Assembly (NCBI GenBank): GCA_046261835.1
Contig: JBHEOA010000058.1
Span: 763 to 64,762 of the forward strand
Direction of reading: 5' to 3'
Length of the DNA stretch: 64,000 nucleotides
DNA from: Gemmatimonadota bacterium
Lineage (GTDB): Bacteria; Gemmatimonadota; Gemmatimonadetes; JACCXV01; JAHWKZ01
The translations under genes were made by a program, and so were the position numbers. Shown one piece after another: positions 1-55,096 of the stretch (position 1 is its first letter; each line of letters begins with the position of its first letter). Under the pieces are notes generated by a model. The model had not been told where the DNA came from, did no database searches, and saw only the letters and a list, made by a program, of their open reading frames with translations.

Positions 1-1179
1 GGCCTCCGCGGCTTTCACAATCGCCTCGCGCCGCGATAGCGGAACGTAGTTGGCGATCACTGCCCACACGTCTGCGAGGCCGGAATAGGCCAGCGGGAAT
101 GAAGGATCGGTCGCGATGGCCGCCTCGAATAGCCCAATCGCCGTATTTAGGCCTTCTCGCGTTCTCTCATTCCAGTGGTAGCGCGCGAGCAGATACTGTT
201 CGTACGCTTCGATGCTCTCGGTGCGCCGGCCAGCGATCCGCTCCCGCTCGCGTGGTGACAGATTCATCTCAAGAGCGGCGGCGATCTGTTGTGCGACCTC
301 GGTTTGGATCGCGAAGATGTCTTCCAGGTTGCGGTCATACGTCTCGGCCCACAGGTGCCCGTCGGTGTGCACATCGGCGAGCTGGGCCACGATCCGAACT
401 CGTTCGCCGTGTCGTCGAACGCTTCCTTCGAGAACCGTGGCTACTCCGAGCTCGCCGCCGATCTCGCGGAGCGATTTGGTCGCTCCCCGATATCGCATCG
501 CGGATGTCCGACTGATCACTTTGAGACCGTGGATCCGCGAGAGGGCCGTAATGATGTCTTCGGTGACGCCGTCGGCAAAGAATTCGTTCTCCGGATCGCC
601 ACTCATGTTGAGGAAGGGCAACACCGCGATGGAAGGCTCCGCGGATTCCGCTACCCGATGAGCCGTATCGTCGGCGCTCTCGGGCTCGCACAGCTCGTAT
701 ACGCAGAGGGGCGCGGTCCCCTTCAGTTGCCTTTCACCTAGCGCGCGGAAGGCAAACCCCGGCCTCTGGCGCATCTGACGCCAAACATCCTCGCTGACCA
801 GGATCTGCCCGGGAAGAGCATCCGCCTCCAGCCGCGCGGCTACGTTGATCCCGTCGCCATACAAGTCGCCGTCGGGCACGCCGGTCACGTCGCCTACATG
901 AACCCCTATGCGGACGGCGTTGCCCGTTCGACGCCGAACCTCGTCGCGCAAAACGATTGCGGCGGCGATGGCCGATCGCGTGCTGGGGAAGGCGGAGAGG
1001 ACGCCGTCTCCCATACGTTTTACTACCCTGCCCCGCCGCTCCTCGACGACTTCGCGCACGATCTCGTGGAAGGCCTGAGCCAGGTGGAAAGCACCATCCG
1101 CGTCACGCGCGGCAAGCTCGGAGTAACCAACGAGATCGGCGAACCAGACGGCCGCGAGGTGAGGATCGGTTGCGTTCAC
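1..1179 (-). CDS. Class III adenylate/guanylate cyclase fused to TolB_N (SIAVLPF) and TPR region; C-terminus beyond window start; probable GTG start near 1179
   Basis: Own minus-strand translation gives cyclase motifs AVWFADLVGYSELA, KRMGDGVLSAF, GDGINV. Followed by PSIAVLPFLNMSGDPENEFFADGVTEDII, RYRGATKSLREIGGELGV and a TPR tail. No stop within window, so absent from the ORF track. Confidence 0.75.
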   Translation of the reverse strand, partial: MNATDPHLAAVWFADLVGYSELAARDADGAFHLAQAFHEIVREVVEERRGRVVKRMGDGVLSAFPSTRSAIAAAIVLRDEVRRRTGNAVRIGVHVGDVTGVPDGDLYGDGINVAARLEADALPGQILVSEDVWRQMRQRPGFAFRALGERQLKGTAPLCVYELCEPESADDTAHRVAESAEPSIAVLPFLNMSGDPENEFFADGVTEDIITALSRIHGLKVISRTSAMRYRGATKSLREIGGELGVATVLEGSVRRHGERVRIVAQLADVHTDGHLWAETYDRNLEDIFAIQTEVAQQIAAALEMNLSPRERERIAGRRTESIEAYEQYLLARYHWNERTREGLNTAIGLFEAAIATDPSFPLAYSGLADVWAVIANYVPLSRREAIVKAAEA

Positions 1180-1661: not shown

Positions 1662-2117
1662 TCAACCGCCGACGGTGAACTCTTTCGCGCCGACCGGCTC
1701 GTTGGCGAGGAGGACCTCGGCGCGGTAGCGGCCGGGAGCGAGCCCACCGGCCGGGGCGAGGTCGAACGTCACGACCTCCTTACCGTTGAGCGACAGGTAC
1801 CGCCCTTCCTCGCCGACGATCGAGCCGTCCTGGTAGGTGAAGCGGGCGACGACGTTCAGCTGCTCGACGGTTCCGTCGAGCTCCGCCGACAGGAACACCG
1901 AATCGCCCGGCTGGAACGTCGTCGCTTCCTGGGCGATACCCCGCCCCTCCTCGACCGCGGCTCCGATCCGAAGGTCACGCACCGCGACCTGTTGCTCGAC
2001 CGGTGCCTCGTCGCCGCCCGCCGGCATCGGAACGCTCACTTCGGTCTCTTCGCCGCCGCCGCCGCAAGCGAGCGCTAAGGCCAGGAGGACGAACGAAGCG
2101 ATCTCTGATCGACGCAT
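1662..2117 (-). CDS. Hypothetical lipoprotein
   Basis: Signal peptide with lipobox LALALAC; no recognised domain. Confidence 0.5.
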   Translation of the reverse strand: MRRSEIASFVLLALALACGGGGEETEVSVPMPAGGDEAPVEQQVAVRDLRIGAAVEEGRGIAQEATTFQPGDSVFLSAELDGTVEQLNVVARFTYQDGSIVGEEGRYLSLNGKEVVTFDLAPAGGLAPGRYRAEVLLANEPVGAKEFTVGG

Positions 2118-2127
2118 AGGGCCCCTC

Positions 2128-2715
2128 CTACGGAGAGACGATGACCTTGGTCCCGATCGCGACCAGCCCGAAGACGGTCGCGATGTCTTCGTTGTACATC
2201 CGGATGCAGCCGTGGCTCGAGGCGCGGCCCACAGAGCCGCGGTCGCGAGTCCCGTGGATCGCGATCTCGTCGTCGATGTAGAGCGCGTAGTCGCCGAGGA
2301 CGCCGGGGATATAGCGTCGCGGATCTCCAGCCGGAGGAGGTCGCTGGCCCTTCTCGAGCCAGTGCCAATCGGGTGCGTACCAGGTCGGATCCTTCTTCAT
2401 GCGGCCGACCTCGAAGATTCCGGTCGGCGTGTCCCACTCCCAGGATCCGCCGTCGAGCTTGCGCAGCGAGCCACCGGTACCGACCCCAACCGGGAATTCA
2501 TGCAACATCTGGTCTCCCCGGTGAACGGCGATGCGACGCTCGGATACGGTTACGTGGAGCCAGACCTCTTCGGCATCAGGCGCTCGATAGGCGGCCCCCT
2601 GGAGCGCACCGGCGTGGTCGACGATGATCGACTCGCCGAGCGCGAGGAGCGTCTGGCCAGGCAAGTCGACCACAACCACGAGCGATAGAGCGACGGTCAG
2701 GAAGAACTGCGACAT
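2128..2715 (-). CDS. L,D-transpeptidase (YkuD domain)
   Basis: Catalytic signature HGT...SHGCIRM near the C-terminus; N-terminal signal/TM. Confidence 0.8.
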   Translation of the reverse strand: MSQFFLTVALSLVVVVDLPGQTLLALGESIIVDHAGALQGAAYRAPDAEEVWLHVTVSERRIAVHRGDQMLHEFPVGVGTGGSLRKLDGGSWEWDTPTGIFEVGRMKKDPTWYAPDWHWLEKGQRPPPAGDPRRYIPGVLGDYALYIDDEIAIHGTRDRGSVGRASSHGCIRMYNEDIATVFGLVAIGTKVIVSP

Positions 2716-4368
2716 CGATCTCCTAAGATACGTCGTATGCCGTCACCGGGGGGTTTGATGGGGGGCAGCCCCATTCGCTCGCGGAGCCGTACGAAGCGTG
2801 GGTCGTCCCGGATCGGATCCAGGCCGGGATCGAAGAAGATGTCCGGGGTCCTGCCCGCGGACCTCTGTTCGATCGACCGTTCGCACCAATCGAAGGCACG
2901 CTCGCGATCACCCGCGTGGAGGTACGTCACCGCCAGGGGGACGGTCGGCCCCTGTTCCTGCCCTGAAACGAGCGTTTGGTAGATCCGACCCGCACCCTCC
3001 CAGTATCCGCGCTAACCCTGCTCGCGCCAGGCACGCGCGAGTTCGGCGCTCAGCCGCTGGCCTGCCTCGGCCCCGGCCAACATCCGCGCCGTGGCGATCG
3101 CGTCCTCGTAGCGCCGGTCGTAGTAGTAGCCCAAGCCGAGCACCGTCGTGATGATCATCGACTGGGGATCGAGTTCGCGGGCGCGCTCGAGCTCGACGAC
3201 CGCCTCCCGCGTTCGACCAACCGCGTAGAGGTACTCGCCGTACCACTGATGGCCGGTAGCATATCCCGGACTGAGCTCGACCGCACGGATGTAGAGCTGG
3301 TCGGCGCGCTCCCATTGCCACCGCTCGTGAGCCACGGCGCCGAGCGTCGCGTACGCCTCTCCGCTTGTGGGATCGAATGTGAGCGCCTGCCGCGCCGCCG
3401 TTTCGGCACGCTGGGTGCCGTCCTCGCGTGGGTACTCCCCGTATTGGGGCAGCAGGAGGTACGTCTCGGCGATCCCGACGTGGGCCAGCGCGAAGCCTGG
3501 ATCTGCGGCGACCGCCTCCTGGAACAGGTCGAGAGCTCGGTCGAGATCCTCGAACGTTCGCCGGTTCCAGAAATACCGCCCGCGCAGGTACAACTGGTAC
3601 GCTTCTTGGTTCGAGGTCGGCGCTCTTTCGATTCGCTGGCGCTCGTCGCTAGTGAGCTCGATTTCGAGCGCACGCGCGATCGAAGTCGCCACGTCGCTCT
3701 GGATTGCGAATAGGCTCTCGACCTCGCGGTCGTAGCTCTCCGACCATAGGTGAGCATCTGTCGAGGCGTCGACGAGCTGGGCGTTGACCCGGACTCGATT
3801 GCCTTCTCGCCGCACGCTGCCCTCGAGGACGGTCGCGACTCCTAGCTCGCGAGCGATATCTCGCAGGCTCTTGTCTGTCTCCTTGTAGTGCATAACCGAT
3901 GTACGGCTTATTACCGTGAGCCCTTCGACCTTGGCGAGGTGACCGATGATCTCCTAGGTCATCCCGTCGCTGAAGAACTCCTGCTCCGGGTCCCCGCTCA
4001 GGTTGGCGAAGGGCAGGACCGCGATCGAGCCGCTGTCCACCGAGGGAACCTGGGCCGGCGTGCTCATCTCGGCAGACGGGGGTCGCGGGTCCTCGCCGTT
4101 TCTCCGGACCAGTGCCAGCGCTGCGCCGGCAACGATGAGGAGCGCCGCGATCATGAGCAGCTCGGGTCCGCTGGCCCGCTGTTGTCCCCGCTCACCGTGG
4201 TACCATGCCAGGACGAGGATGATTGGAAAGCCAATGGCAAGGAGGATGGTCAGTCCGCGTAAGACCGAAGAGGGCCAGCCGAAGTTGGTTCCGACCGTCG
4301 TCGCCACCTGGAGGACGAGCCACGCACCAGCCAGGTAGGCGAGTGCTCCGTTCTTGGGGGAGTGGGAG
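2697..4368 (-). pseudogene. Membrane-anchored TolB_N + TPR protein (cyclase-less paralogue of the gene at 1..1179) interrupted by two in-frame TAG codons; start not resolved
   Basis: ORFs 3954..5009 (C-terminal part), 3012..3893 and 2697..2930 are all in one frame. Read-through of the TAG at 3954-3956 gives ...SIAVLPFANLSGDPEQEFFSDGMT*EIIGHLAKVEGLTVISRTSVMHYKETDKSLRDIARELGV, the canonical TolB_N continuation. Read-through of the TAG at 3012-3014 gives ...AWREQG*RGYWEGAG...YLHAGDRERAF...DPRFVRLRERMGLPP, the family-typical C-terminus. Confidence 0.6.
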
Positions 4369-4369
4369 G

Positions 4370-6484
4370 TCAGTACCTCGCCAGTTCGCGGATCGCGTCG
4401 CGGATGTCCTCGACCTGCGGAAGGATCGCGTCCTCCAGCGACGGGGCATATCCCACCTGGGTGTCGAGCGCGGCGACCCGCCGCACGGGACCGTCCAGCA
4501 CCTCGAACAGCTCGTCGGCGACCCAGGCCGCGACCTCGGCACCGAAGCCCCACGAGATCGGATCCTCGTACACCACGACGACCTTGTTCGTGCGCCGGAC
4601 CGACCGAGCGACCGCCTCCCTGTCCCACGGCGAGAGCGAGCGCAGGTCGAGGATCTCGCACTCGATCCCGTCCGTTTCGGCCACCTCCTTCGCGGCGACT
4701 AGCGACCGCTGCACGGTCGCGCCGTACGTCACAATCGTGAGATCGTCGCCTTCGCGGACTTTCACCGCGCGTCCGAAGGGGATCATGTAGTCGGGCCCCG
4801 GATAGCGGCACTTGTTGTAGGTCTGGCGGTAGAGATGCTTGTGCTCGAGGAACATGACCGGATCGTCGCACCGGATTGCCGTCCGCAAGAGCCCGTTGGC
4901 GTCTTCGGCCGTGGCCGGCATGACCACCCTGAGGCCGGGGTTGGCAGTGAAGAGGATCATCCCCGATTGGGAGTGGTAAACGGCACCGCCCTTGAGGTAG
5001 CCCCCACATGGAACTCGCACGACGACCGGCGAGGCGAAGTCGCCGTTCGACCGCCAGCGCAGCAGCGCCAGCTCGTTTCGAATCTGCATGTAGGCGGGCC
5101 AGATGTAGTCGTAGAACTGAATCTCGACGACCGGCTTGAGGCCGCGTGTCGCCATGCCGACCGCGCGCCCCACGATGTTCGCCTCTGCGAGCGGCGAGTT
5201 GAAGACGCGGATCGAGCCGTACTTGCGCTGAAGGTTGGCGGTGACCTTGAACACGCCGCCCTTCCCCTTGATCTCGCTCAGCGCCGCCTCGCGCGAGGCG
5301 TCGGCCACATCCTGGCCGAAGAGCACGATCCGTGGATTTCGCGCCATCTCATCGGAGAGACATGCGTTGAGGAGGTCGACCATGGTTGTGGGCTCGCCCT
5401 CGTTGCGGGGATCCGTCGCGAAGGCGTCGGATGTGGGATCGACCTCGGACGAGTAAACATGAAGGGTCGCGGTGTCGGGCTCGGGCTGAATCGCAGCGAG
5501 GGCGCGCTCGGTGGCGGTCTCGATCTCGCGATCGACCTCGTTCCGGACAGCCTCGAGCTCTTCCTCGGTCGCGATCCCTTCGGCCACCAGAAAGCGGGGG
5601 AAGGTGGTCAGGGGATCGCGGGATGCTTCCTCTTCCCGCTCCCGCTCTGGCCTGTAGAGACGCTCGTCGTCGGACAGCGAGTGACTGTAAGGACGAATGA
5701 GGTGGGCGTGGATCAGGCCCGGTCCTTTGCGCCCACGCACGTGAGCGACCGCTCCCTCGAGGGCAGCATACGACGCCAACGGATCGCAACCGTCGCACTC
5801 CGTTACGTAGAGTCCCGGGAACGATCGGACGAGCTTGGAGATCGAGCCCCCGGCGGTTTGGACCTCGACCGGGACGCTGATCGCGTACTTGTTGTCCTCG
5901 ATCAGGTAGAGGACCGGCAGCGCCAGGTTGCACGCGGTGTTCAGCGACTCCCAGAACTCGCCCTCCGAGGTGGTGCCGTCCCCCGAGGTCACGAGCACGA
6001 TGTCGTCGTCACGCACATCAGGGTCGTTTGCCAGCTCCGGGATCCGCTCCTTGCGCATGCGGGCCTCGGCGCACCCGACAGCGTTGAGGAACTGCGTTCC
6101 CGTCGGACTCGAGGTCGACACGATGTTGAGCTCGCGGGAGCCCCAATGAGAGGGCATCTGGCGACCGCCGGACTGAGGATCGTCGGCGGCCCCGACGGCC
6201 TGGAGGAGCTGGGCCTCGACCGAGAGCCCGAGCGCGAGGCACAGCGCGCGGTCGCGATAGTAGAGGTAAAACCAGTCGTAGCCCGGCTTCAGCAGCTGGG
6301 CGGCGGCGACCAGAACCGCTTCGTGCCCAGCGCCCGAGATCTGGAAGAAGATCTTGTTCTGGCGCTTGAGCTGAATTTCTCTGTCGTCGACCCGTCTCGC
6401 CGCGTAAATCGTGCGGTACCAGCGGACGAGCGTAGCTGCGTCGAGGCCGGTTGCCGGCGCGGTTTGCGCGTACGGGAGCTGCAT
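4370..6484 (-). CDS. 2-oxoacid (branched-chain/pyruvate-type) dehydrogenase E1 component, fused alpha/beta subunits (TPP-dependent)
   Basis: 704 aa from the internal ATG at 6484. N-terminal half is E1alpha-like ([17 protein letters not shown]...[15 protein letters not shown]). C-terminal half is E1beta/transketolase-like ([20 protein letters not shown]...FLEHKHLYR). Confidence 0.85.
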
Positions 6485-6623
6485 AAGAGCCGATTTTAGC
6501 CAGGGCCGAAGCACCACGCCACGCGTTTCCGCGTCTAGGGAACTCCCAGCTTGTGGGAAGGCACGGCGTCCGCGCGTTATATTCACCGTTCCAGTCCGGC
6601 CGGCCCTCACTTCCACTCGAAGG

Positions 6624-7265
6624 ATGTCGATGCCCGTAGACGGAAAGACGCGTAAGGACGCGTGGGCGATCGTCGAGGAGTTCACCGACAGCGAGAACCT
6701 GCGCCGCCACATGCTCGCGGCCGAGGCCGGGATGCGAGGCTACGCGCGGATCTTCGGCGAAGACGAAGAGAAGTGGGGCTTGGTGGGGTTGCTGCACGAC
6801 TTCGACTACGAGAAGTACCAGGGCCCGAACGGCCATCCGTTCGTCGGCGTCCAGATCCTCGACAAACGAGGGTGGCCCCGCGAGGTGCGACGCGCGATCC
6901 TGTCGCACGCTGACTACACCGGCGTTCCCCGCGAAACCAGAATGGAGAAGACGCTTTACGCCGTCGATGAGCTGAGTGGTTTTCTCGTCGCGTGCGTGAT
7001 CGTGCGGCCGAGCAAGTCGTTCAAGGATCTCACCGTCGCTTCGGTCAAGAAGAAGATGAAGGACAAGAGCTTTTGCGGAGCCGTCGATCGCGAGGACCTC
7101 AAGCGCGCGGCTGTCGATCTAGGAATCGCCTTCGACAAGCACGTCGAGAACGTGATCAAGTTCCTCGCTCCCATCGAGGAAGAGCTCGGCCTCGGTGCGG
7201 CAGCCGGCAAAGACTCCGCGCCTGCCGCGTCAGTCAAGAAGGCCACAGGCAAGAAGACCAAGTAA
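6624..7265 (+). CDS. HD-domain metal-dependent phosphohydrolase (COG2316-like)
   Basis: [10 protein letters not shown]...[13 protein letters not shown] motifs; start chosen at internal [17 protein letters not shown]. Confidence 0.6.
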
Positions 7266-15486: not shown

Positions 15487-15604
15487 CGAGGGCGCAAGAT
15501 AGGCCCCTGGAACGCCTGTAGGCGAGATGCTCTAGTCAGACGGCGGACGGGGTTTCCCCAGTGGTTTGGCAAACCGGGCGTTCTTTCCCATTTTCGGCGC
15601 GGCG
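15487..15604. promoter_or_regulatory. Divergent promoter region between E1alpha operon (-) and kynA operon (+); near-palindrome GGTTTGGCAAACC
   Basis: 118-nt intergenic between two divergently oriented start codons; tggtttggcaaaccggg is a near-inverted repeat. Confidence 0.3.
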
Positions 15605-16390
15605 ATGACAGATCCGCCCCTCAACTACACCGGCTACCTCAAGATCGAGGAGCTCCTCTCGCTCCAGGAGCCGCGCTCCGACGAGCACGACGAAATCCTG
15701 TTCATCGTCATCCACCAGGTCTACGAGCTGTGGTTCAAGGAGATGCTCCACGAGCTCGACCACCTCGACCGCGTGCTGGCGCGAGGCGACCTCCCCGCCG
15801 CGCTCCACACCCTCAAGCGGATCCTGACGGTCCTCAAGATCGTGGTCGCTCAGATCGACGTGCTCGAGACGATGACGCCCGTCGACTTCTTCTCGTTCCG
15901 CGATCGGCTCGAGACCGCCAGTGGGTCACAGTCGTATCAGTTTCGGGAGCTCGAGTTCGTGCTCGGGATGAAGGACGCGCGCACGATCGAGGACTATCCC
16001 GAGGGAAGCCGCGGCCGGGCGAACCTCGAGCGGCGGCTCGGCGAGCCGTCGACCTGGGATGCGATGCTGCGCTACCTCTCACGCAAAGGATACGACGTTC
16101 CGCGCGAGGCACTGGAGCGCGACGTGACCCAGTCGGTCGAGCCGCGCGAGGATGTCCAGCGACTGCTGGTCGACGTGTACCACGACGATCGCGGGACCGC
16201 GGAGCTCTGCGAGCGGCTGGTCGACCTGGACGAAGGATTCCAGGAGTGGCGTTACCGGCACGTTAAGATGGTCGAGCGGACGATCGGGCATCATCGCGGA
16301 ACCGGCGGTTCCGCGGGCGTGGACTTTCTCAAGCGGACCCTGTTCCGCTCGGCCTTTCCCGACCTGTGGGCGATTCGCTCCGAGCTGTAG
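15605..16390 (+). CDS. kynA: Tryptophan 2,3-dioxygenase
   Basis: LNYTGYLKIEELLSLQEP...HDEILFIVIHQVYELWFK...GTGGSAGVDFLKRT is the canonical bacterial TDO. ORF also open from 15566. Confidence 0.85.
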   Translation: MTDPPLNYTGYLKIEELLSLQEPRSDEHDEILFIVIHQVYELWFKEMLHELDHLDRVLARGDLPAALHTLKRILTVLKIVVAQIDVLETMTPVDFFSFRDRLETASGSQSYQFRELEFVLGMKDARTIEDYPEGSRGRANLERRLGEPSTWDAMLRYLSRKGYDVPREALERDVTQSVEPREDVQRLLVDVYHDDRGTAELCERLVDLDEGFQEWRYRHVKMVERTIGHHRGTGGSAGVDFLKRTLFRSAFPDLWAIRSEL

Positions 16391-16417
16391 GTCGCCGAAC
16401 GTCCGCCCGACGGTGAC

Positions 16418-17656
16418 GTGGTGACCCGAGCGACGGCGGTGACGCCGGCGGACCTGTACGCGAGCCCCAACGCGATCGCGCCCGATTACTCGCGCTTCCG
16501 GGTCGCCGATCGCCTCCTGCTCTCCGGACACTCGCACCAGGCCTGGCCCGACGTGGGGTTCGAGGGGCAGGAACAAGCCTGGCTCGATGCCGCCGAGCAC
16601 GTCGACGAGAAGTGGGAGCACGCGTTCGCCCGGGCCGAGCGGGTCCGTGAGGGGTACCGCCGCGTGCTCGAAGACCCCGGCGGCGCGGTCGCGCTCGGCC
16701 CCGCAACCCACGATCTCCTGATCAAGTGGCTCTCCTTTCTCCCCCTCGCTGAGCGGCAGCGGATCGTCACGACGGACGGCGAGTTTCACGCCGCGCGGCG
16801 ACAGCTCGACCGGCTCGCCGAAAGCGGGATCGTCGAGATCGTCAAGGTCGGCGCGCATCCGGCGGAGTCGGTGGGCGAGCGGGTCGCGGCCGCCATCGAC
16901 GCCCGGACAGCCGCCGCGATCGTCTCGGCCGTGTTCTACGAGGACGCTCACATCGCGGGAGGCCTTACACAAGCGCTCGATGCATGCCGTCACCATGGCG
17001 CCGAGCTTCTGGTCGACGCGTACCACGCGCTCAACGTCGTGCCGTTCGGCCTTGCGTCGTGGGGCCTCGAAGAGGCGTGGGTCACCGGCGGCGGCTACAA
17101 GTACCTCGAGCTCGGCGAGGGGAACGCATTCCTCAGGATCCCTCCGGGACGCGACCCGCGTCCGATCGTGACCGGCTGGTTCGCCGAGTTCGACACGATG
17201 ACCGACCGGAAGGACCCCGGCCGCGTCGCATGGGGCGGGATCGCCTCCCGTTTCGCCAGCGCAACGTACGACCCGACCAGCCATTACCGCGCGAGCGAAG
17301 TGTTCGACTATTTCAGGGACCGCGGGCTCACACCCGAAATCTTGCGCGAGGTGTCCCAGCACCAGGTGCGGTACCTCGCCGAGCGGTTCGACGCACTGGA
17401 CGTCGACCCGACCGTGGTCGACCGCGATCGATCGGCGCCGCTCGAGCGAAGGGGCGGGTTCCTCGCGTTCCGCTCGCCTCGCGCCGGGGAGCTTCGGCAC
17501 GAGCTTTTCCGTCGCGGCGTATGGTGCGACCATCGCGGCGATGTCTTGCGCCTCGGACCTGCCCCCTATCTCTCGGATCGCCAGCTCGAAGATGCCGTAG
17601 CCGCGCTGCACGAAGCGGCAATGGCATTTATAGACCCGCCGCCTTCAAGGGCTTAG
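16418..17656 (+). CDS. kynU: Kynureninase (PLP-dependent)
   Basis: 412 aa; LLLSGHSHQAWPDVGF...LLVDAYHALNVVP...GGGYKYLELGEGNAF typical of bacterial KynU. Confidence 0.85.
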   Translation: MVTRATAVTPADLYASPNAIAPDYSRFRVADRLLLSGHSHQAWPDVGFEGQEQAWLDAAEHVDEKWEHAFARAERVREGYRRVLEDPGGAVALGPATHDLLIKWLSFLPLAERQRIVTTDGEFHAARRQLDRLAESGIVEIVKVGAHPAESVGERVAAAIDARTAAAIVSAVFYEDAHIAGGLTQALDACRHHGAELLVDAYHALNVVPFGLASWGLEEAWVTGGGYKYLELGEGNAFLRIPPGRDPRPIVTGWFAEFDTMTDRKDPGRVAWGGIASRFASATYDPTSHYRASEVFDYFRDRGLTPEILREVSQHQVRYLAERFDALDVDPTVVDRDRSAPLERRGGFLAFRSPRAGELRHELFRRGVWCDHRGDVLRLGPAPYLSDRQLEDAVAALHEAAMAFIDPPPSRA

Positions 17657-36278: not shown

Positions 36279-37622
36279 CTACTCCTCTTCGAATTCCTCC
36301 TCTTCGAGCTCCTTCAGAGCGAGACGGGCGACGTGTTGCGCGGTCGGGTGGAAGCGAGGGTTGAGGGCCACCGCGCGCTCGAGGTTCACACGTGCGGCGG
36401 AACGATTGCCGAGCGCCCGCTCGATGATCCCCGCGTGAAGGAACAAGGTCCCGTCCCGCGTGCCCATCCGGAGGGCCTCCGCGATCGCCGTTTGCGCACC
36501 GGCTAGGTCGCCGGTCAGGTAGCGCGCCCAGGCGAGCTGGTCCCAGCCGTAGACGTCCGGGCGATCGACGATCTCGCGCTCGAGGATCGAGCGCGTCGAG
36601 GCGAGCTCACGGCCGTGCTCTAGGCGGAAGAGCGTCCACTGGCGGGCGTATGGCTCCGACGTCTCGCGCGCGAGACGCTCCACGTCGGCGTAGGCTGCCT
36701 CCGCGCGCGAGGAGTCGCCGAGGGCGGCCCAAGCGTCCCCCACGAGCGCGACCGTCGCCATGTCGGGGACGATGGCTATCGCGCGACGGCCCCACTCGAG
36801 GGCGCCCTGCCAATCCCCGTCGAGCGCCCGAAGACGTGCGCCCGCCGCGAGCAGCCGTGGATCGTCCGGCGCGATCGCCAATCCTACCTCGAGCGCTTTC
36901 CCGGCGGCCTCCAACCGACCGTTCCGTAGCTCTAGATCGACTACCCGCAGATGAAACCACGCGACCTGCTCCCGAGCCAGGTCGGACCGCCGATCCGCCT
37001 CGTCGCGCGCGACCGCGAGAACTCGCCGTGCCTCTTCGGTCCTTCCGTGAATCTCGGCCCAACGCGCGAGTCGCGGCAAGACCGCGAGGTTTCGCCGTTC
37101 GCCACCCAACGTGGCAAACGTCGCGTCTGCCTCATCGTATTTCCCCAACTCGAGCTGGATCTCTCCGAGAAGGGCGCGATGGTGGGCCTGCTCGGGTTCG
37201 CGCGCGACGAGGACCTCGGCCACATCGAGAGCGTCGACGAAGCGATGCTGGGCCAGGAGACTCGCAGCGAGCTGGAGATACGCGCCGCCGTTGTGCGGGG
37301 TCCGAAGCAAGAGCGAACGCCGGGCCATGGCCTCGGCGCGACGGTAGTCCTGGTACTCCCCGGTCTCGCGTGCGCGCTGGAGGTACTGGCTCGCCAGCCG
37401 GGCGTGGTCGAACGCGCTCTCGGGATCCCGCTCGACCCGCCGTTCATAGAACGCGATCTCGCGCTCGCGCAGGGCCCGCTCCGAGGCGGCCGAACGAGCC
37501 GTCACGGCTGTCTCCGCCCGGACCGCCATCCGGCCCCCGCTGCCCCACAGGCCAGCGACCGCCGCGAGGCCGGCGGCCAGAATCAGAAACCATCTCCCGA
37601 GGCGACGCATCGCGCCCAGCAC
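36279..37622 (-). CDS. TPR-repeat protein with N-terminal signal/anchor
   Basis: N-terminal hydrophobic segment, then repeated TPR-like Ala/Leu-rich units. Confidence 0.6.
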   Translation of the reverse strand: MLGAMRRLGRWFLILAAGLAAVAGLWGSGGRMAVRAETAVTARSAASERALREREIAFYERRVERDPESAFDHARLASQYLQRARETGEYQDYRRAEAMARRSLLLRTPHNGGAYLQLAASLLAQHRFVDALDVAEVLVAREPEQAHHRALLGEIQLELGKYDEADATFATLGGERRNLAVLPRLARWAEIHGRTEEARRVLAVARDEADRRSDLAREQVAWFHLRVVDLELRNGRLEAAGKALEVGLAIAPDDPRLLAAGARLRALDGDWQGALEWGRRAIAIVPDMATVALVGDAWAALGDSSRAEAAYADVERLARETSEPYARQWTLFRLEHGRELASTRSILEREIVDRPDVYGWDQLAWARYLTGDLAGAQTAIAEALRMGTRDGTLFLHAGIIERALGNRSAARVNLERAVALNPRFHPTAQHVARLALKELEEEEFEEE

Positions 37623-38159
37623 CTAGTTCGGCGCGGCAAGGTAGGGAAACGTCGTCGAGAACGCCTTGTTGTTGGCGTCCACGTTGTCGGTGCTCAGGCA
37701 TGCCGTCGTGTTGGCCGGATCGAGGAGTGGGCCGAACACGGCCATGAGGGCGACGTCTACGACGTCGTCCGACAGCGTGCGTCCTCCGTACCCGTCTGCA
37801 ACGGCCCAGGTCAACCAGCCGGCGGTCGAGCCCGGCTTCTGAGTCTGGACGACCAGCATGTCGGGCAGGAGCACGCTCGAGATCGTATTGGCCAGAGTCT
37901 GGCTCCGGCCAGCGACCTGGGTGATGAAAAGGACCAGGTCGTCGGTAAAGGCGGCACGGTCTTGAGATGGAACGAGGGTGTTGTGGTGTCCATGCTCGCG
38001 CTTGGCGATCAGCGCCTCGCTGACGAGGGGGTTTCCGAGCCGCTCGATCTGGTTGAACACCACGCCGCCGGGGATGGGTCCGGTCACGTCGTCGTCGGAA
38101 CAGCCGAGCGCCATGGTGAGGGGCGCCGACAAGAGGATCATCATCATGAGAATTCTCAT
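37623..38159 (-). CDS. Lipoprotein resembling the C-terminal half of DUF4331 proteins
   Basis: Lipobox LTMALGC; positioned immediately after the DUF4331-like gene as if split from it. Confidence 0.4.
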   Translation of the reverse strand: MRILMMMILLSAPLTMALGCSDDDVTGPIPGGVVFNQIERLGNPLVSEALIAKREHGHHNTLVPSQDRAAFTDDLVLFITQVAGRSQTLANTISSVLLPDMLVVQTQKPGSTAGWLTWAVADGYGGRTLSDDVVDVALMAVFGPLLDPANTTACLSTDNVDANNKAFSTTFPYLAAPN

Positions 38160-38190
38160 CGTTTCGTCTCCCGCCTGAAAGGTGGAATCG

Positions 38191-38910
38191 CTACCGGCTG
38201 GTCGTCGCCCAGACGCCGATCTTGCCCGTGCCGCCGCCGGTGAGCTCGGATTCGGGCAGCTCGATCACCATCGCCAGCGTGTTGAAGCCGGAGACGAAGT
38301 CGACGCCGGGATCGCGGAAGCAGGACGCCGACGGGGTGTCCGGCAGATCCGCCAGCGCGCCCGTGGAGGGCTGACGGTCAGGCACGATCCGGAAGAACTG
38401 CTCGAGGTCGATGAAGAAGGGATCGTCCCGGATGCCGGCGAAGACCTGCATCCCATTTGCGGAACCGAACGTCTCGTTGATTCGACCACTCGCCGCTGGT
38501 GCGACGTCGAGCTTCGTGTTCAGCATGCCGATCTCGTTCGGCGCGACCGGGCCGCGCACCTCGACCCTCTGATCGCTGCCTTCCCCCTCGAATGTGACCT
38601 GTAGCACCAGGTCCTCGATGGCGTCGTCGTTGTTGTCGATCTTGATCTGGTACAGGAGCTCGGGGTCGAAGGATGCGCTCGCCGACTGTGCCGGCGTCAG
38701 CGGCGAGGACGTGTCCACCACCAGGACGATCCGGTCGTCGTTGGAGCCCGGAAATGCGTACACGTCGTTGATGTCCATGCGCGGGCTCAGCTCGACCTCG
38801 GTCGTGTCCTGATGGTCCGAGCCGACGAGCCGCGTCGCCAGGAATCCGGCGCTGCCCAGAATCGGCACCACCGCCAGGACCGCCAGCGATCGAAGGGTCT
38901 TCCGATTCAT
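38191..38910 (-). CDS. Secreted DUF4331-like protein (N-terminal half of the family)
   Basis: Signal peptide MNRKTLRSLAVLAVVPILG; motifs DINDVYAF and GIRDDPFFIDL resemble the DUF4331 RDDPFF signature (recalled, not verified). Confidence 0.45.
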   Translation of the reverse strand: MNRKTLRSLAVLAVVPILGSAGFLATRLVGSDHQDTTEVELSPRMDINDVYAFPGSNDDRIVLVVDTSSPLTPAQSASASFDPELLYQIKIDNNDDAIEDLVLQVTFEGEGSDQRVEVRGPVAPNEIGMLNTKLDVAPAASGRINETFGSANGMQVFAGIRDDPFFIDLEQFFRIVPDRQPSTGALADLPDTPSASCFRDPGVDFVSGFNTLAMVIELPESELTGGGTGKIGVWATTSR

Positions 38911-48853: not shown

Positions 48854-49726
48854 TCAATACAACTCCGCCAGCATGCAGCGGGCGCTGCCTCCGCCGTACG
48901 TCTCGATCGTTTCGAGATCGGCGCTGACGATTTTCACGAGGGCCTCGAGCACCCCGCGCTGCTCCTGCGTGAAGGTCCGCCAGGCTCGCTCCGACATCAC
49001 CAGAAAGCGATCGCCTTGCGCGTTCTCGAGCTCCAACGCGTTGGCGCAGAACGCGTGGAGCTGATCGAGCCCGATCTCGATCACGACCCGGCCTGAACGC
49101 GACAGCTCCTCGAGCACCCGGTGCTGGGCGTCAGTCGGCTCGATCGCAGCGATGCATGCGATCGCGTACCCCGTCCCCAGCGTCAGCACCACGTTCGTGT
49201 GGTAGATGACGCGCCCGTCGCGATCGCGCGCCGTGAATACCACCGGTCGGTAGCCGAACCGCTCGGCCCACGTCTCGACGAGCTCGGCGTCGGTGCGCGA
49301 GGAGGTACTTGCATACACGTCGCGCGCGGGCTCATCAATGACGAGGCTTCCGGTGCCCTCGAGGAAGCGGGCGCCCGCTTCTTGGGCCGTCAAGTCGACC
49401 GGCTCACCGTACCGGTCGCGCAGCCAGTCGACGATCGCGCGCGTCCGCTCGCGGCGGCGGCTGGGCGCCATCATGGGATAGAGGATCCACGAGCCCGAGG
49501 GATGGGTCGAGAACCAGTTGTTCGGGAAGACTGCGTCGGGGGGAAGCGCTCCGTTCGGGGCGAATGTGACGACTTCGATGCCCCGCGAGTCGAGCGCAGC
49601 TCGCAGCGCCCGGAACTCCTCGCGCGCTCGCGCTTCGACGACGGCGGGATCGCCTTCGGCCGGCGCCTGGAACGCATTGTCCAGCGCCGTCTCGGGGTTT
49701 GCGCCGAAGCCGATCGGCTCGACCAT
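48854..49726 (-). CDS. Amidinotransferase-superfamily hydrolase (DDAH/arginine deiminase-related, CtlX-like)
   Basis: C-terminal catalytic Cys motif ETYGGGSARCMLAELY and DDAH-like pentein fold length (290 aa). Confidence 0.6.
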   Translation of the reverse strand: MVEPIGFGANPETALDNAFQAPAEGDPAVVEARAREEFRALRAALDSRGIEVVTFAPNGALPPDAVFPNNWFSTHPSGSWILYPMMAPSRRRERTRAIVDWLRDRYGEPVDLTAQEAGARFLEGTGSLVIDEPARDVYASTSSRTDAELVETWAERFGYRPVVFTARDRDGRVIYHTNVVLTLGTGYAIACIAAIEPTDAQHRVLEELSRSGRVVIEIGLDQLHAFCANALELENAQGDRFLVMSERAWRTFTQEQRGVLEALVKIVSADLETIETYGGGSARCMLAELY

Positions 49727-49747
49727 GAGGACCGCGCGGGCCGGCAG

Positions 49748-50173
49748 CTAACCCACCTCCCGGTAGATCCAGGCACCGAGAATCGAGGCGAGCATAACCT
49801 CGAAGAATCCCCAGACGATGACGATCAGGAAGAGCTCGGTCGGCAGGAAGTCCCAGACGACGTTGCCGAGAAAAGGCCACAGCCATCCCAGGACCCAGAC
49901 CAGAAACCCCGCGCGCAGAGCGGTTCGAGGGTCCGCGCCGAAGCGCGGTCGCATCGCGGCATAGGTCCAGACGAGAACGAGCCCCAGGATGAATACCATC
50001 GCCGCCGAGATCGCGGCGTCACCGGGGCCGTAGCCTTCGATCCCGCGCGCCTGGCGCGCGGCGTCCCAGCGCGAGCGGAGCACGATGCGGTGGAGAATGT
50101 ACTCGCCCACGTCCATGACGATGCCGGCGATCGCCCCGCCGAGCGCCACGCGTCCGAGCCGTATCCCGTGCAT
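49748..50173 (-). CDS. Small 4-TM membrane protein, tandem paralogue 1 of 3
   Basis: Shared motifs G.VAG.V.N.GEY.L and WLYAAMRPRFG.GPKTA with the two upstream genes. Confidence 0.5.
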   Translation of the reverse strand: MHGIRLGRVALGGAIAGIVMDVGEYILHRIVLRSRWDAARQARGIEGYGPGDAAISAAMVFILGLVLVWTYAAMRPRFGADPRTALRAGFLVWVLGWLWPFLGNVVWDFLPTELFLIVIVWGFFEVMLASILGAWIYREVG

Positions 50174-50176
50174 GCG

Positions 50177-50635
50177 CTAGCGCACTTCGACCGTCGAGGT
50201 CGCGGCCGCCGGCTTCTCCTGATAGAGCCAGGCTCCGATCAAGGTCGCGATCGGGATCTCGAACAACCCCCAGATCAGCGTGATCGTGCTGATGTCTCGG
50301 GGGAAGAGACCGATGGCCTGATTCCACGCCCAGAACGTACCACTCAGAACGAGCCACAGGACGAGACCGGTGATGAACGCAGTTTTAGGGCCGGGTCCGA
50401 AGCGTGGTCGCATCGCAGCATACAGCCACACGGCCACGATCCCGAGGACGAACGTCACGGCGACGAAGATCGCGATCGTCGAGGTGGACTCTTGTGGCGG
50501 TTTTCCGAGCGCCTCATACGCCGCGCGCCACTTTTCCCCGAGGATCGGCTCGTTGAGGATGTACTCGCCGATGTTCCAGACGAGTCCCGCCACGAGTCCC
50601 CCCACGATCACTCTGGCCATGTTGATCTTGCCCAT
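50177..50635 (-). CDS. Small 4-TM membrane protein, tandem paralogue 2 of 3
   Basis: MGKINMARVIVGGLVAGLVWNIGEYIL...VWLYAAMRPRFGPGPKTA; 3-nt gap to paralogue 1. Confidence 0.5.
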   Translation of the reverse strand: MGKINMARVIVGGLVAGLVWNIGEYILNEPILGEKWRAAYEALGKPPQESTSTIAIFVAVTFVLGIVAVWLYAAMRPRFGPGPKTAFITGLVLWLVLSGTFWAWNQAIGLFPRDISTITLIWGLFEIPIATLIGAWLYQEKPAAATSTVEVR

Positions 50636-50645
50636 GCCCCCCCTC

Positions 50646-51089
50646 CTACCGAGCAACCGAAGCGGCCGGCGCAGTCGGCTCTTCCTTGTAGAGCCATCCG
50701 CCGACCATCGCCGCAATCAGGTACTCGAAGAACGCCCACACCGCGCCGATCATCATGAGGCGGGAGGGATAGACGGGGTTGAGAGCGTTCCAGACGTAGG
50801 GCGGGATCGCTAGCAGAAACCAGGTGAAGATCCCGGCGATCGCTGCTGTCTTGGCCCCCGGCCCAAAGCGCGGCCGGATGGCTGCATAGAGCCAGACCAG
50901 CGCGATCCCGATCACGAATCCGAGCAGGACGAGAACGCCGATCTCGGCGCCGGTCATGGGCGGCACGCTAACCGCCTCCGCCGCGGCCTCCCAGTCCTCC
51001 GCCAGGATGACTGCATTGAGCAAATACTCTCCGATGTTCAGGACCAGACCGGCTACGAGACCGGCTCCGATGACGCGACCCACGCTCAT
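50646..51089 (-). CDS. Small 4-TM membrane protein, tandem paralogue 3 of 3
   Basis: MSVGRVIGAGLVAGLVLNIGEYLL...VWLYAAIRPRFGPGAKTA. Confidence 0.5.
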   Translation of the reverse strand: MSVGRVIGAGLVAGLVLNIGEYLLNAVILAEDWEAAAEAVSVPPMTGAEIGVLVLLGFVIGIALVWLYAAIRPRFGPGAKTAAIAGIFTWFLLAIPPYVWNALNPVYPSRLMMIGAVWAFFEYLIAAMVGGWLYKEEPTAPAASVAR

Positions 51090-51751: not shown

Positions 51752-52318
51752 CTACTCCCGGGGGATTCCGATGAAGCGTGGGATTCGACGCGCGTAGGCC
51801 TCATACCTATCGCCATAGGTTCGCCGGAGCCAAGCCTCCTCTGCGAAAGGACCGAGCACGAGCCCCACGACAGCAAGCACCGCGGCGATCCACAGTAGCC
51901 GCGAGTTGGCGAGGATGGCAAACCCCAACGTCGCAAGAATGTCGCCGACATACTGCGGGTTGCGGGAGTAGCGGTAGGGTCCGCGTTCCTGGAAGGGGCC
52001 GCCGAGGCCCGACGAGACCGGGCGACCCAGCGCGCGGACGCCCCAGTCGGCGATCCCGAGCCCGAAGGCGACAAGAGCGCCGCCCACCAGGATCCGTTCG
52101 TCGGCCTTCCAAAGGAACGTATTCCAATCGAGCCACGCGAGCGCGATCGCGGCCGCGACGCCCACGATCACGGGCCAGAACGTTACGTGGAACTGCCAGG
52201 TTTCCTTGCCGGGTGGTGGCCAGACAGGCTTCTCCGGCCGAAGGAGCGAGCCGACGACGGCCGCGAGCAGGATGACCTCGCACGCGATCGTGATCGCGAA
52301 GGCGACCCAGGTTTCTAC
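51752..52318 (-). CDS. Isoprenylcysteine carboxyl methyltransferase / phospholipid methyltransferase-family membrane protein
   Basis: ERGPYRYSRNPQYVGDIL...AEEAWLRRTYGDRYEAY ICMT/PEMT signature; multi-TM. Start trimmed to avoid overlap with the VOC gene. Confidence 0.6.
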   Translation of the reverse strand, partial: VETWVAFAITIACEVILLAAVVGSLLRPEKPVWPPPGKETWQFHVTFWPVIVGVAAAIALAWLDWNTFLWKADERILVGGALVAFGLGIADWGVRALGRPVSSGLGGPFQERGPYRYSRNPQYVGDILATLGFAILANSRLLWIAAVLAVVGLVLGPFAEEAWLRRTYGDRYEAYARRIPRFIGIPRE

Positions 52319-52680
52319 TTGGCGCTCTCGTCGGGCTGCATGATCCCGTGGACGTTTCCGTCGGGGTCCTTGAAGTAGCAGAACCAACCCACCCCCGCAA
52401 CCGCCATCTTATCCGTCACCATCGTTCCGCCTGCCGACTTCACCTTCTCCCGGTACCTCTCGAGGTCAGGCACGTCGAGCGTGTTGATGACCGGGGGCGC
52501 CTCGGGCATTCGTCGCATGAAGCCGCCGTTGATCCCCGGTCCGTCGGTCCCGGTCGTCACGAGCCAGTACTCGACCGGTCCCTGCCATTTGTTGAACTTC
52601 CAGCCGAAGACGTTTCCGTAGAACTTCGCCAGCTCCTCGGGGTCGTCGGACATGATCTCGAAGTGAACGATGCGGGGCAT
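52315..52680 (-). CDS. VOC (glyoxalase/bleomycin-resistance) family protein
   Basis: MPRIVHFEIMSDDPEELAKFYGNVFGWKF...WFCYFKDPDGNVHGIMQ. Confidence 0.65.
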   Translation of the reverse strand: MPRIVHFEIMSDDPEELAKFYGNVFGWKFNKWQGPVEYWLVTTGTDGPGINGGFMRRMPEAPPVINTLDVPDLERYREKVKSAGGTMVTDKMAVAGVGWFCYFKDPDGNVHGIMQPDESAK

Positions 52681-52710
52681 GGGGCCTCCTGGGTTGGGGT
52701 GAAATGTCCG

Positions 52711-53544
52711 CTACCGTTTCGGCTCGGCGACGAATTCCAGCCACGCGTTGAGCGCCAGGGCATCGAGTGCGCGGTGCGCGAGTCGGCGCACCGGGTTTCG
52801 CCGCTTGACGGCCGCACTGGTGCCAGCATAGAGGACGCGGAAGCCATTCTTCTCGAGTAGCCGGTTCAGCGTCTCCCTATCGAAGTACCACAGATGGTGC
52901 TCGGGGCTCAGGTGCTTGAAGGGTCGAGGCTTCAAGCCCGAGCGACTCAGAAAGCTCTTCCACCGTGACATGAAGCTCGCCTCATTGGGAAGCACCAGGT
53001 GAAGAATGCCGCCGTCCCCGAGGAGCTCGGCGACGCGCGTGAGAAAAGCATTGGGGTCGAGAACGTGCTCGAGGACGTGGTGGACGGTAACCACATCCCA
53101 GCGGTCCAGGTCGAGCTCGGCGATATCCCCCAGATAGAGGTCGATTCCGTGCGTAGCCAGGCGTTCGCGGTTGACATCCGTGATGTCGGTGCCGCCGAGC
53201 CGACCCACTCCCGACATCTTCGAGAGATGGATGAGGAAGTGACCGAGCCCAGTTCCGATATCGAGGACGCAGGGGTTGGACGCTCGCGTATAGTGCAGGA
53301 ACGTGGTCGCGTATCGGTGGCTGGTCTCGGCGCTGTACGCAGCGATCTCTGGATCGATCCTACGCCGACGGTCTTCGTCGAAGTACGGGTCGCCATAGAT
53401 CGCCAGGATTTCGGCCTCTGACGGCCGCGGGTTCATGTACCTGAGCCCGCAACGACGACAGTGGACGATCGTGTAGCCGGCGTAGTGGCGCCCCCAGAAC
53501 TCGTCGTCAGCGATCTCGCAGATCGGGCAGCGGACCGGCTCCAC
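52711..53544 (-). CDS. Class I SAM-dependent methyltransferase with N-terminal zinc-ribbon
   Basis: CPICEIADDEF...CRRCGLRY zinc ribbon; VLDIGTGLGHF motif I; DVVTVHHVLEHV. Confidence 0.65.
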   Translation of the reverse strand: MEPVRCPICEIADDEFWGRHYAGYTIVHCRRCGLRYMNPRPSEAEILAIYGDPYFDEDRRRRIDPEIAAYSAETSHRYATTFLHYTRASNPCVLDIGTGLGHFLIHLSKMSGVGRLGGTDITDVNRERLATHGIDLYLGDIAELDLDRWDVVTVHHVLEHVLDPNAFLTRVAELLGDGGILHLVLPNEASFMSRWKSFLSRSGLKPRPFKHLSPEHHLWYFDRETLNRLLEKNGFRVLYAGTSAAVKRRNPVRRLAHRALDALALNAWLEFVAEPKR

Positions 53545-54570
53545 TCAATCCGGCTCGAAGTAGGGATCGAGCGCAAAGGGATCCTCGAAAAAGCGGGAGT
53601 GCCACTGGGGGGCGACCAGGTCGAGGAGGAGCGCGGTCGCGGCGCCGAGCGGATAGAACGCGACTCGGCGGTCGTTCGAGAGGGTCGACATCTGCAGCCC
53701 CTCCAGGATTTCGCGACGCAGTCGCGCCGCCGCCTCGGCGTACGGCTCGTGGTCCGGCAGCGGATCGGGCGGCTCGCCTTGGAGCGCCGCGAGCTCGGCC
53801 AACCGAAGCTCGGTGTAGCGTGCCACACCTTCCTGCCAGAGCTGGAACTGGAAGTATCGGTAGTCCTCCTCGGAAAGCGTCTCACGGAACCGCTCGCGCG
53901 CGGAATGATACGCCTCCAGACGGTTCGCGAAGTCAGGGGTCCCGGCGAGCTCGAGCGTACGCAGGAGGTGGCTCGCGAGATCGACGTACCGCCCGCGCAC
54001 GTTCGGGTCTTCGTACGGGAACGGGTAGTCGAGCATCCATTGCCCCGTCGTGTCGCCGTGCGCGAGGTCGAGCTCGGCGACGCCGTCGAAGTAGTCGGGC
54101 TGGGACATCTGGAGCTGATGGAAGCGTTCGTGGAGGACCGAGAGCACCCATGCGGTCGTTCCCTTCCCCGTCGCCTCGGCGGTTCCCACCACGATCGTCG
54201 GAACGCCGCCGACCGCCGGGAACGAGGCGAGGAAGTGGGGCGGGAAAACGGCGGCGCGATGGAAAACTGCGACCCCGAGCTGGGCATTGTCACCGAGCTG
54301 AGCGAAATCATCGGACGGTCGCGGGTGGCCGATCAGGAACTCGTCCGTTGAGGTGACGAGCAGAAGGGCGAGCGGGATTTCGTTCCAGCCAGGCCAGAGC
54401 GAGTCACCGACCAGGCTCGAGACGCGCATCGATTCCGCGATCTGCGCCCGTTCGCCGGAGGGGATCGAGGGATCCGTGAGGGCCGTCGCGCTCGGCGGAG
54501 GCCCGACCTGTGCGATCAGCTCGGCGACCAGAGCGAACGTCAAGAGGGAGATGAGCGAACAGGCCCGCAT
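53545..54570 (-). CDS. Secreted protein with HExxH motif (HERFHQLQ); possible metallohydrolase
   Basis: Signal peptide MRACSLISLLTFALVAELIA; single HExxH; otherwise unrecognised. Confidence 0.4.
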   Translation of the reverse strand: MRACSLISLLTFALVAELIAQVGPPPSATALTDPSIPSGERAQIAESMRVSSLVGDSLWPGWNEIPLALLLVTSTDEFLIGHPRPSDDFAQLGDNAQLGVAVFHRAAVFPPHFLASFPAVGGVPTIVVGTAEATGKGTTAWVLSVLHERFHQLQMSQPDYFDGVAELDLAHGDTTGQWMLDYPFPYEDPNVRGRYVDLASHLLRTLELAGTPDFANRLEAYHSARERFRETLSEEDYRYFQFQLWQEGVARYTELRLAELAALQGEPPDPLPDHEPYAEAAARLRREILEGLQMSTLSNDRRVAFYPLGAATALLLDLVAPQWHSRFFEDPFALDPYFEPD

Positions 54571-54592
54571 CGGCTTCAGTACACCAGCCTGT

Positions 54593-55096
54593 TCATGTCG
54601 GTTCTACCAGCGTCGCGACGATGCGCTCGACGATCCGCTCGGGCGGAGCCTCGGCATCGACGACGAGCGCTTCGTCGGGGCCGGGCGCCTCGAGATCGGC
54701 GAATTGGCTCTCGAGCAGCTCGGGTCCTGCGAAATGGTTCTTCCGCCCGGACAGCCGCTCGGCGATCACGGACCGCCCAGCCGCCAGGTGGACCAAAGCG
54801 ACCTCGGGACGATCTGTGCCGAGCCGCCGACGGTACGCACGCTTGAGCGCCGAGCAGGCGACGACCGCCGGTTTACCCAACGAGAGCCGCTCATCGATCT
54901 CCCGCCGCACCGCCTCGAGCCACGGCAGCCGATCGTCGTCCGTCAAGGACTCGCCTCGTGACATCTTGGCGACATTTCCGGCAGGGTGGAAATCGTCGGC
55001 GTCGACGAAGTCCCAACCCAGCTCGTTCGCCAAGCGCCTTCCGATCGTCGTCTTGCCGGCACCGATCACACCCATGAGTACGATGACGCGACCCGT
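54593..55096 (-). CDS. gntK: Gluconokinase (shikimate-kinase-like P-loop); start probably GTG upstream of the listed Met
   Basis: RVIVLMGVIGAGKTTIGRRLANELGWDFVDADDFHPAGNVAKMSRGESLTDDDRLPWL is the canonical GntK N-terminus. Confidence 0.65.
   Translation of the reverse strand, partial: TGRVIVLMGVIGAGKTTIGRRLANELGWDFVDADDFHPAGNVAKMSRGESLTDDDRLPWLEAVRREIDERLSLGKPAVVACSALKRAYRRRLGTDRPEVALVHLAAGRSVIAERLSGRKNHFAGPELLESQFADLEAPGPDEALVVDAEAPPERIVERIVATLVEPT

Follow-up and report, generated by a model that had tools for sequence, protein, structure and literature searches.

A probable young pseudogene of a TolB-like/TPR membrane protein carries two in-frame TAG codons in a Gemmatimonadota genome

Introduction

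Recoding of the amber codon (UAG) is known from pyrrolysine decoding, from suppressor tRNAs and from the TAG-reassigned codes of phages. Ordinary bacterial pseudogenes, in which members of expanded families are broken by nonsense and deletion, form a second group of described cases. A third point of comparison is the Gemmatimonadota family of TolB-like/TPR paralogues, which comprises stand-alone forms of about 560–600 aa as well as fusions with adenylate cyclase, Ser/Thr kinase and winged-helix domains. JGI names its members TolB-like protein/Flp pilus assembly protein TadD or Tfp pilus assembly protein PilF; "TolB-like" is used here as the JGI/COG label carried by the homologues and not as a Pfam assignment.

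The window, by which we mean the whole 64-kb stretch of DNA that was analysed, carries on its minus strand a gene of this family that is interrupted by two in-frame TAG codons. We conclude, with a probability of about 0.92, that the locus is a recently inactivated, non-functional copy (a pseudogene) of a Gemmatimonadota TolB-like/TPR membrane protein.

Locus and protein family

The interrupted gene lies between an E1 dehydrogenase gene and a YkuD transpeptidase gene, and the features of this region are as follows.

4370–6484, minus strand: E1, fused alpha/beta, of a 2-oxoacid dehydrogenase, 704 aa; 100% identical to P0121 / MFN2420518.1; synteny anchor
2697–4367, minus strand: probable pseudogene remnant of a TM-TM / TolB-like / TPR protein, from single-frame translation, family matches and the alignment with P0373
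3954–3956, minus strand: first in-frame TAG, at the position of Glu in the conserved FFSDGMTEEII motif, presumably by GAG to TAG (G to T)
3012–3014, minus strand: second in-frame TAG, at the position of Glu in REQGERGYW, presumably by GAG to TAG
2128–2715, minus strand: L,D-transpeptidase (YkuD), downstream neighbour; Pfam YkuD 146/146

The protein that E1 matches at 100%, MFN2420518.1, belongs to a Gemmatimonadota metagenome-assembled genome (MAG). The E1 open reading frame extends over 780 codons (4370–6712, minus strand); homologues and NCBI start at MQLPYAQ (704 aa, from 6484), and the 76 codons upstream of that start are probably not translated.

Single-frame translation of the minus strand from 4367 to the TGA at 2699–2697 is open except for the TAG codons at 3956–3954 and 3014–3012. 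An earlier note on this DNA had placed the start at 4368, whereas the true codon boundary is 4367; its end at 2697 agrees. Its observation that both TAGs lie in one frame is borne out by the translation and by family homology that runs colinearly through both stops without a frameshift, with E-values down to 1e-137, far beyond chance. When read through, the protein has 7188 family matches at E ≤ 1e-3, the best at 1e-137, with 92–97% query coverage and 40–49% identity. At the column of the first TAG, 107 homologues carry mostly acidic residues, with E in 48/107 and D in 43/107.

Several Pfam TPR families match the read-through protein above their cut-offs, namely TPR_2 (5e-12), TPR_17, TPR_19, TPR_11 and TPR_14, and the PDB structures matched by a profile of the family are all generic TPR ones. 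The single non-TPR Pfam match, to FlgO (PF17680), is sub-threshold at 21.7 bits against a cut-off of 22.6. A TolB_N domain, which the earlier note had given in its title, must be dropped, as Pfam finds no match to TolB_N (PF04052) at E ≤ 10 and offers just the sub-threshold FlgO. In the intact protein, a pair of N-terminal TM helices is combined with a TolB-like/FlgO-like domain and TPR repeats.

A paralogue at the start of the window (1179 to 1, minus strand) carries a Guanylate_cyc domain. Previously described as intact, it is indeed open over its visible part of 393 codons (1179 to 1), and the word holds for that part, since the gene runs off the window. The possibility that the pseudogene is a recent duplicate of this cyclase gene is ruled out by their identity of 52% over 228 aa. 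Cyclase–TPR paralogues following YjbQ are patchily distributed, being present in the window (1–1179, minus strand) and in the related loci L161 (5856–7775) and L164 (6485–8398) and absent in L162 and L165, although the dS between L161 and L162 is only 0.08. Genes of the TPR family appear to turn over quickly around the E1–YkuD–YjbQ operon.

The first TAG sits within a CCTAGG palindrome, one of only four in the window (3953, 40418, 58523 and 63296). We considered this motif as a methylation or error site and set the idea aside, the four window copies being accompanied by no supporting sign. The tetranucleotide CTAG is rarer than expected across the whole window, with 42 observed against about 68 predicted from trinucleotide counts.

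Intact orthologue and further defects

Relatives of the locus were found via E1 and 90% clusters, and share the synteny E2–HD–E1–YkuD–...–YjbQ. P0373, an intact 587-aa protein from an ENA metagenome contig, belongs to the same 90% cluster as the 117-aa N-terminal fragment and is 91% identical to the window translation over 531 aligned residues. P0373 is uninterrupted and has a full N-terminus; relative to the window copy it contains 38 more residues, has a normal stop and ends 19 residues sooner. The earlier note had proposed comparing the interrupted codons with those of orthologues, and P0373 supplies this comparison, with Glu at both TAG sites (DGMTEEII and REQGERGYW). Most simply, each TAG would derive from GAG by a single substitution, the ancestral codon being read back from the P0373 protein. 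A search of a 5.8-billion-protein database returned no further close orthologue, the next best match to the middle segment being 51% identical, and a search of the read-through protein against metagenomes likewise gave no orthologue, with best matches at 45–51% identity.

A close relative, L166, shares the E1 neighbour of the window, the two E1 proteins being 98.3% identical at the amino acid level with a dS of 0.127. The L166 contig ends 72 nt past the E1 stop and includes an intact start, MSSVFSDLRNRK; at 36 nt past the E1 stop it reads ATG AGC TCC GTC TTC TCG GAT CTC CGC AAC CGT AAG, and the window has no ATG there. The N-terminus of P0373 (MSSVFSDLRNRKLVQWALAYL) is the same as that of L166 over the 12 residues available in the open reading frame after the E1 stop. 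On the strength of these 12 shared N-terminal residues only, we assume a common population for P0373 and L166.

Alignment to these relatives and to the family reveals three further defects.

4331–4372, minus strand: 5' deletion junction, at about 4345/4344, where the shared 5'-UTR motif CGGAGC is fused straight to the ALAYL codons
3081–3089, minus strand: point where 38 codons (114 nt), about one TPR hairpin, are deleted in frame, from an anchor-gap comparison
2743–2759, minus strand: +2 frameshift within A/C runs (ATCAAACCCCCC) immediately upstream of the original stop, from comparison with the end of P0373

We infer the exact deletion and frameshift junctions from the P0373 protein and not from DNA. 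The description of the interruptions as substitutions and not indels holds for the two TAGs; the earlier note had missed the 5' deletion, the 38-codon deletion and the 3' frameshift elsewhere in the gene.

As a result of the 5' deletion, the start codon is gone, as are the first 16 codons (MSSVFSDLRNRKLVQW). In L166, L167, L161 and L162, CGGAGC is followed by ATGAGCTCC..., which is missing in the window; the E1 stop TGA (4372–4370) falls within the junction region. An N-terminus of the form M..L..RLK.RKLVQW ahead of ALAYLAGAW is typical of most of the 107 homologues (540–660 aa), and is present with its start codon in P0373 and L166, where the window has unrelated residues. No in-frame ATG, GTG or TTG occurs between 4553, deep in the E1 gene, and 4307, within the first TM helix; with no canonical start left, the conserved N-terminus cannot be expressed. 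Initiation from a CTG at 4373, which overlaps the E1 TGA, was considered and rejected, since the relatives show the true ATG and N-terminus that are deleted in the window.

The in-frame deletion corresponds to the P0373 segment AATEMTEEVLNPYGALLLALQETHRFPEAIETLSTMMR (AATEM...STMMR), and leaves 12 residues between the flanking anchors compared with 38–74 in all 107 homologues. At the 3' end, the original TGA (2745–2743) is out of frame, and the reading frame continues for 19 codons to the TGA at 2699–2697, overlapping the YkuD start. Removal of 2 nt from the ATCAAACCCCCC run (2759–2748) gives an ending of ...GLPPINPR and a stop, compared with ...GLPPSNPR in P0373.

Genomic neighbourhood and gene loss in relatives

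In relatives without the TPR gene, YkuD directly adjoins E1. L164, L163 and one more contig have no TPR-gene remnant between E1 and YkuD, and L163 has a small opposite-strand SnoaL gene in this position. L161 and L162, whose E1 proteins are 90% identical to that of the window with a dS of about 0.9, also have no TPR gene and keep a remnant of only about 40 nt, consisting of ATGAGCTCCCGCTTC (MSSRF) and 23 nt identical to window positions 4320–4298 (codons LVLQVAT). L167 retains a remnant of about 95 nt, which begins ATG AGC TCC GTC TTC GAG GAT CTC CGT ... GTCCAGTGGGCGATCGCC and is followed directly by the YkuD leader. Because the breakpoints differ between L161/L162 and L167, the TPR gene was deleted independently in these lineages. 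An ACGACG microhomology at the L161/L162 breakpoints was examined as a possible cause and is suggestive only, as that strand of the window has 70 copies of the hexamer.

The 23-mer was found in the window and L161/L162 alone among the 164 loci compared. This 23-nt island (L161 4757–4779, L162 8156–8178, window 4298–4320) is perfectly conserved although dS is about 0.9; it is in frame with YkuD in L161 and L162, and the JGI call for YkuD begins at its GTG. After YkuD, a 151-aa protein (1662–2117, minus strand) keeps its position in L165 and L167, its orthologues having no Pfam family; in more distant relatives the same slot holds a fatty-acid desaturase (L164) or an SSF transporter (L163).

Among the 80 GTDB species-representative loci listed for E1, a set that does not include the close relatives and in which all are at most 70% identical, none shares the window neighbourhood, and a tblastn search for the TPR gene in these 80 loci gave a single unrelated match at 32% (L027). 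It is conceivable that the E1–YkuD slot is a hotspot for both gain and loss of sensor-type TPR paralogues, and that an expressed fragment, such as the 293-aa product described below, has a role of its own; we regard this as very unlikely, and with respect to a hotspot the data show repeated loss only.

Alternative explanations

In the public record, parts of the locus are annotated as two proteins.

3957–4307, minus strand: hypothetical protein ABR527_03970 (MFN2420517.1, 117 aa, GTG at 4307 in the first TM helix), from exact look-up
3012–3893, minus strand: hypothetical protein ABR527_03965 (MFN2420516.1, 293 aa), from exact look-up

The C-terminal 77-aa open reading frame is unannotated there. 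It could be argued from the NCBI annotation of both hypothetical proteins, and from the ATG and high GC3 (0.79) of the 293-aa open reading frame, that the pieces live on as separate proteins, one a membrane fragment of 117 aa, the other a soluble TPR fragment of 293 aa initiated at ATG 3893. This is very unlikely, as the 117-aa call starts inside a conserved TM helix and the 293-aa open reading frame inside the TolB-like domain, neither of which is a family-typical boundary. Moreover, no promoter- or terminator-like sites were found in the 2000–5000 region, the database contains no further protein that combines such a fragment architecture with high identity, and high GC3 is expected of a young pseudogene anyway.

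Marginally less probable still is an assembly or consensus artefact, in which the real gene would be intact and the defects would be base-call errors or the product of a chimeric MAG consensus. The source is a MAG, and the 3' frameshift lies in homopolymer runs, a typical site of error, but all five differences would need to be errors, and deletions of about 55 nt and 114 nt are not base-call errors. In addition, a same-frame-neighbour scan of the 64 kb, which covered stops and not frameshifts, detected no internal stop in any other window gene, and related lineages truly lack the TPR gene.

Turning to decoding of TAG, a crude GC3-based gene map of the window gave about 46 TGA, 19 TAG and 2 TAA terminators, so that TAG accounts for about 28% of 67 calls. 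In six of the TAG-ended genes (UPF0047, YkuD, DUF4331, kynureninase, lipoamide dehydrogenase and RskA_C) the stop lies at most 10 residues from the end of the Pfam profile. TAG is a normal terminator in the genome of the window, and the earlier opinion that genome-wide amber reassignment is unlikely is upheld by the roughly 19/67 crude calls that end in TAG, six of them checked against Pfam ends. No tRNA genes, and with them no tRNA(CUA), are present within the 64-kb window. In the pseudogene, 56% of the possible single-base nonsense changes yield TAG, and two of two stops being TAG has a p of about 0.31; given this share in a GC3-rich gene, nothing can be read into the identity of the two stop codons.

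Four other pairs of same-frame open reading frames separated by TAG (15536–17656, 36279–38264, 48854–50716 and 52315–54603) were considered as read-through candidates and rejected, the downstream open reading frames having their own start and belonging to a different family. A tryptophan 2,3-dioxygenase gene followed in the same frame, across a single TAG, by a kynureninase gene forms a kynurenine-pathway pair (15566–17656, plus strand). Tandem same-frame paralogues encoding small membrane proteins (about 141 and 179 aa; 49748–50716, minus strand), each ended by TAG, lie upstream of a gene that is amidinotransferase-like by translation alone.

That the gene is functional and its ambers are read through or suppressed (through a suppressor tRNA, pyrrolysine-like decoding or context-dependent leakiness) would suit two TAG stops in an otherwise open frame with conserved residues kept, but this is the least probable reading, to the point of being negligible, because the conserved N-terminus has no start codon from which to be expressed, TAG is a verified and common terminator in the window, the close orthologue P0373 has Glu and no TAG at either site, two TAGs are expected by chance, no tRNA is found in the window, and the 38-codon deletion and frameshift have nothing to do with decoding. 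Of the two options left by the earlier note, an inactivated paralogue or read-through, recent inactivation is strongly supported by the Glu of the orthologue and the three additional defects, whereas read-through is not supported, given the missing start, the normal use of TAG and the non-conservation of the two TAGs.

Timing and course of inactivation

Mismatches at conserved family columns amount to 3/66 in the pseudogene, typical of intact members, and polarising the changes with a family outgroup assigns 25 to the window and 21 to P0373 (p=0.66). Nonsense changes make up about 3.7% of random substitutions in the pseudogene; at this share, two of them are compatible with a brief neutral phase, which can be accommodated in the dS of about 0.13 between the window and L166. 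Setting the five defects aside, conservation appears to match that of a working member, and sequence alone cannot separate a recent loss from a selected gene. Purifying selection probably maintained the gene for most of its existence, until a recent loss; a sister strain keeps the same gene intact, and the pseudogene is its counterpart in the window.

We propose that an ancestor had the intact TPR gene in the position between E1 and YkuD, and that the five defects arose in the lineage of this MAG. The first, a deletion whose size we estimate at 55–60 nt, took the ATG with the ribosome-binding region ahead of it and the 16 initial codons. The others are a Glu (GAG) to TAG change at 3954–3956, an in-frame deletion of 114 nt that takes one TPR hairpin, a second Glu (GAG) to TAG change at 3012–3014 and a +2 frameshift just before the stop. 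We infer both the order of these five events and the lack of expression. Taken together, five independent disabling defects, an intact orthologue and loss of the gene in relatives point to ordinary gene decay and not to read-through.

Comparison with known systems

In practical terms, ABR527_03965 and ABR527_03970 should become one pseudogene in the annotation. As a negative result, the in-frame ambers at this locus are no evidence of recoding in Gemmatimonadota. The locus also provides a small, clean case of family turnover, with the gene intact in one strain, carrying five defects in another and surviving as remnants in distant relatives.

The likeness to amber recoding systems extends to the in-frame TAG and nothing more; here TAG is a common terminator, is not conserved in the orthologue and is accompanied by no tRNA(CUA) in the window. 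With the Gemmatimonadota TolB-like/TPR paralogue family, the window remnant is colinear over 95% of its length, and it keeps the family motifs ALAYLAGAW...LAWYHGE and AVLPF.N.S.D...FFSDG.TEEII, the TPR block and the C-terminal DPRF..L..R.GL. The copy differs from working members in the loss of the start codon and first 16 codons, in the two ambers, in the missing TPR hairpin and in its shifted 3' end. With ordinary bacterial pseudogenes the locus shares several independent disabling defects, an intact sister orthologue and complete deletion in other relatives, and from them it shows no notable difference, the window copy being young and as yet without an excess of missense changes. We read the locus as an ordinary pseudogene, still young, that derives from one dispensable member of a family which has expanded.
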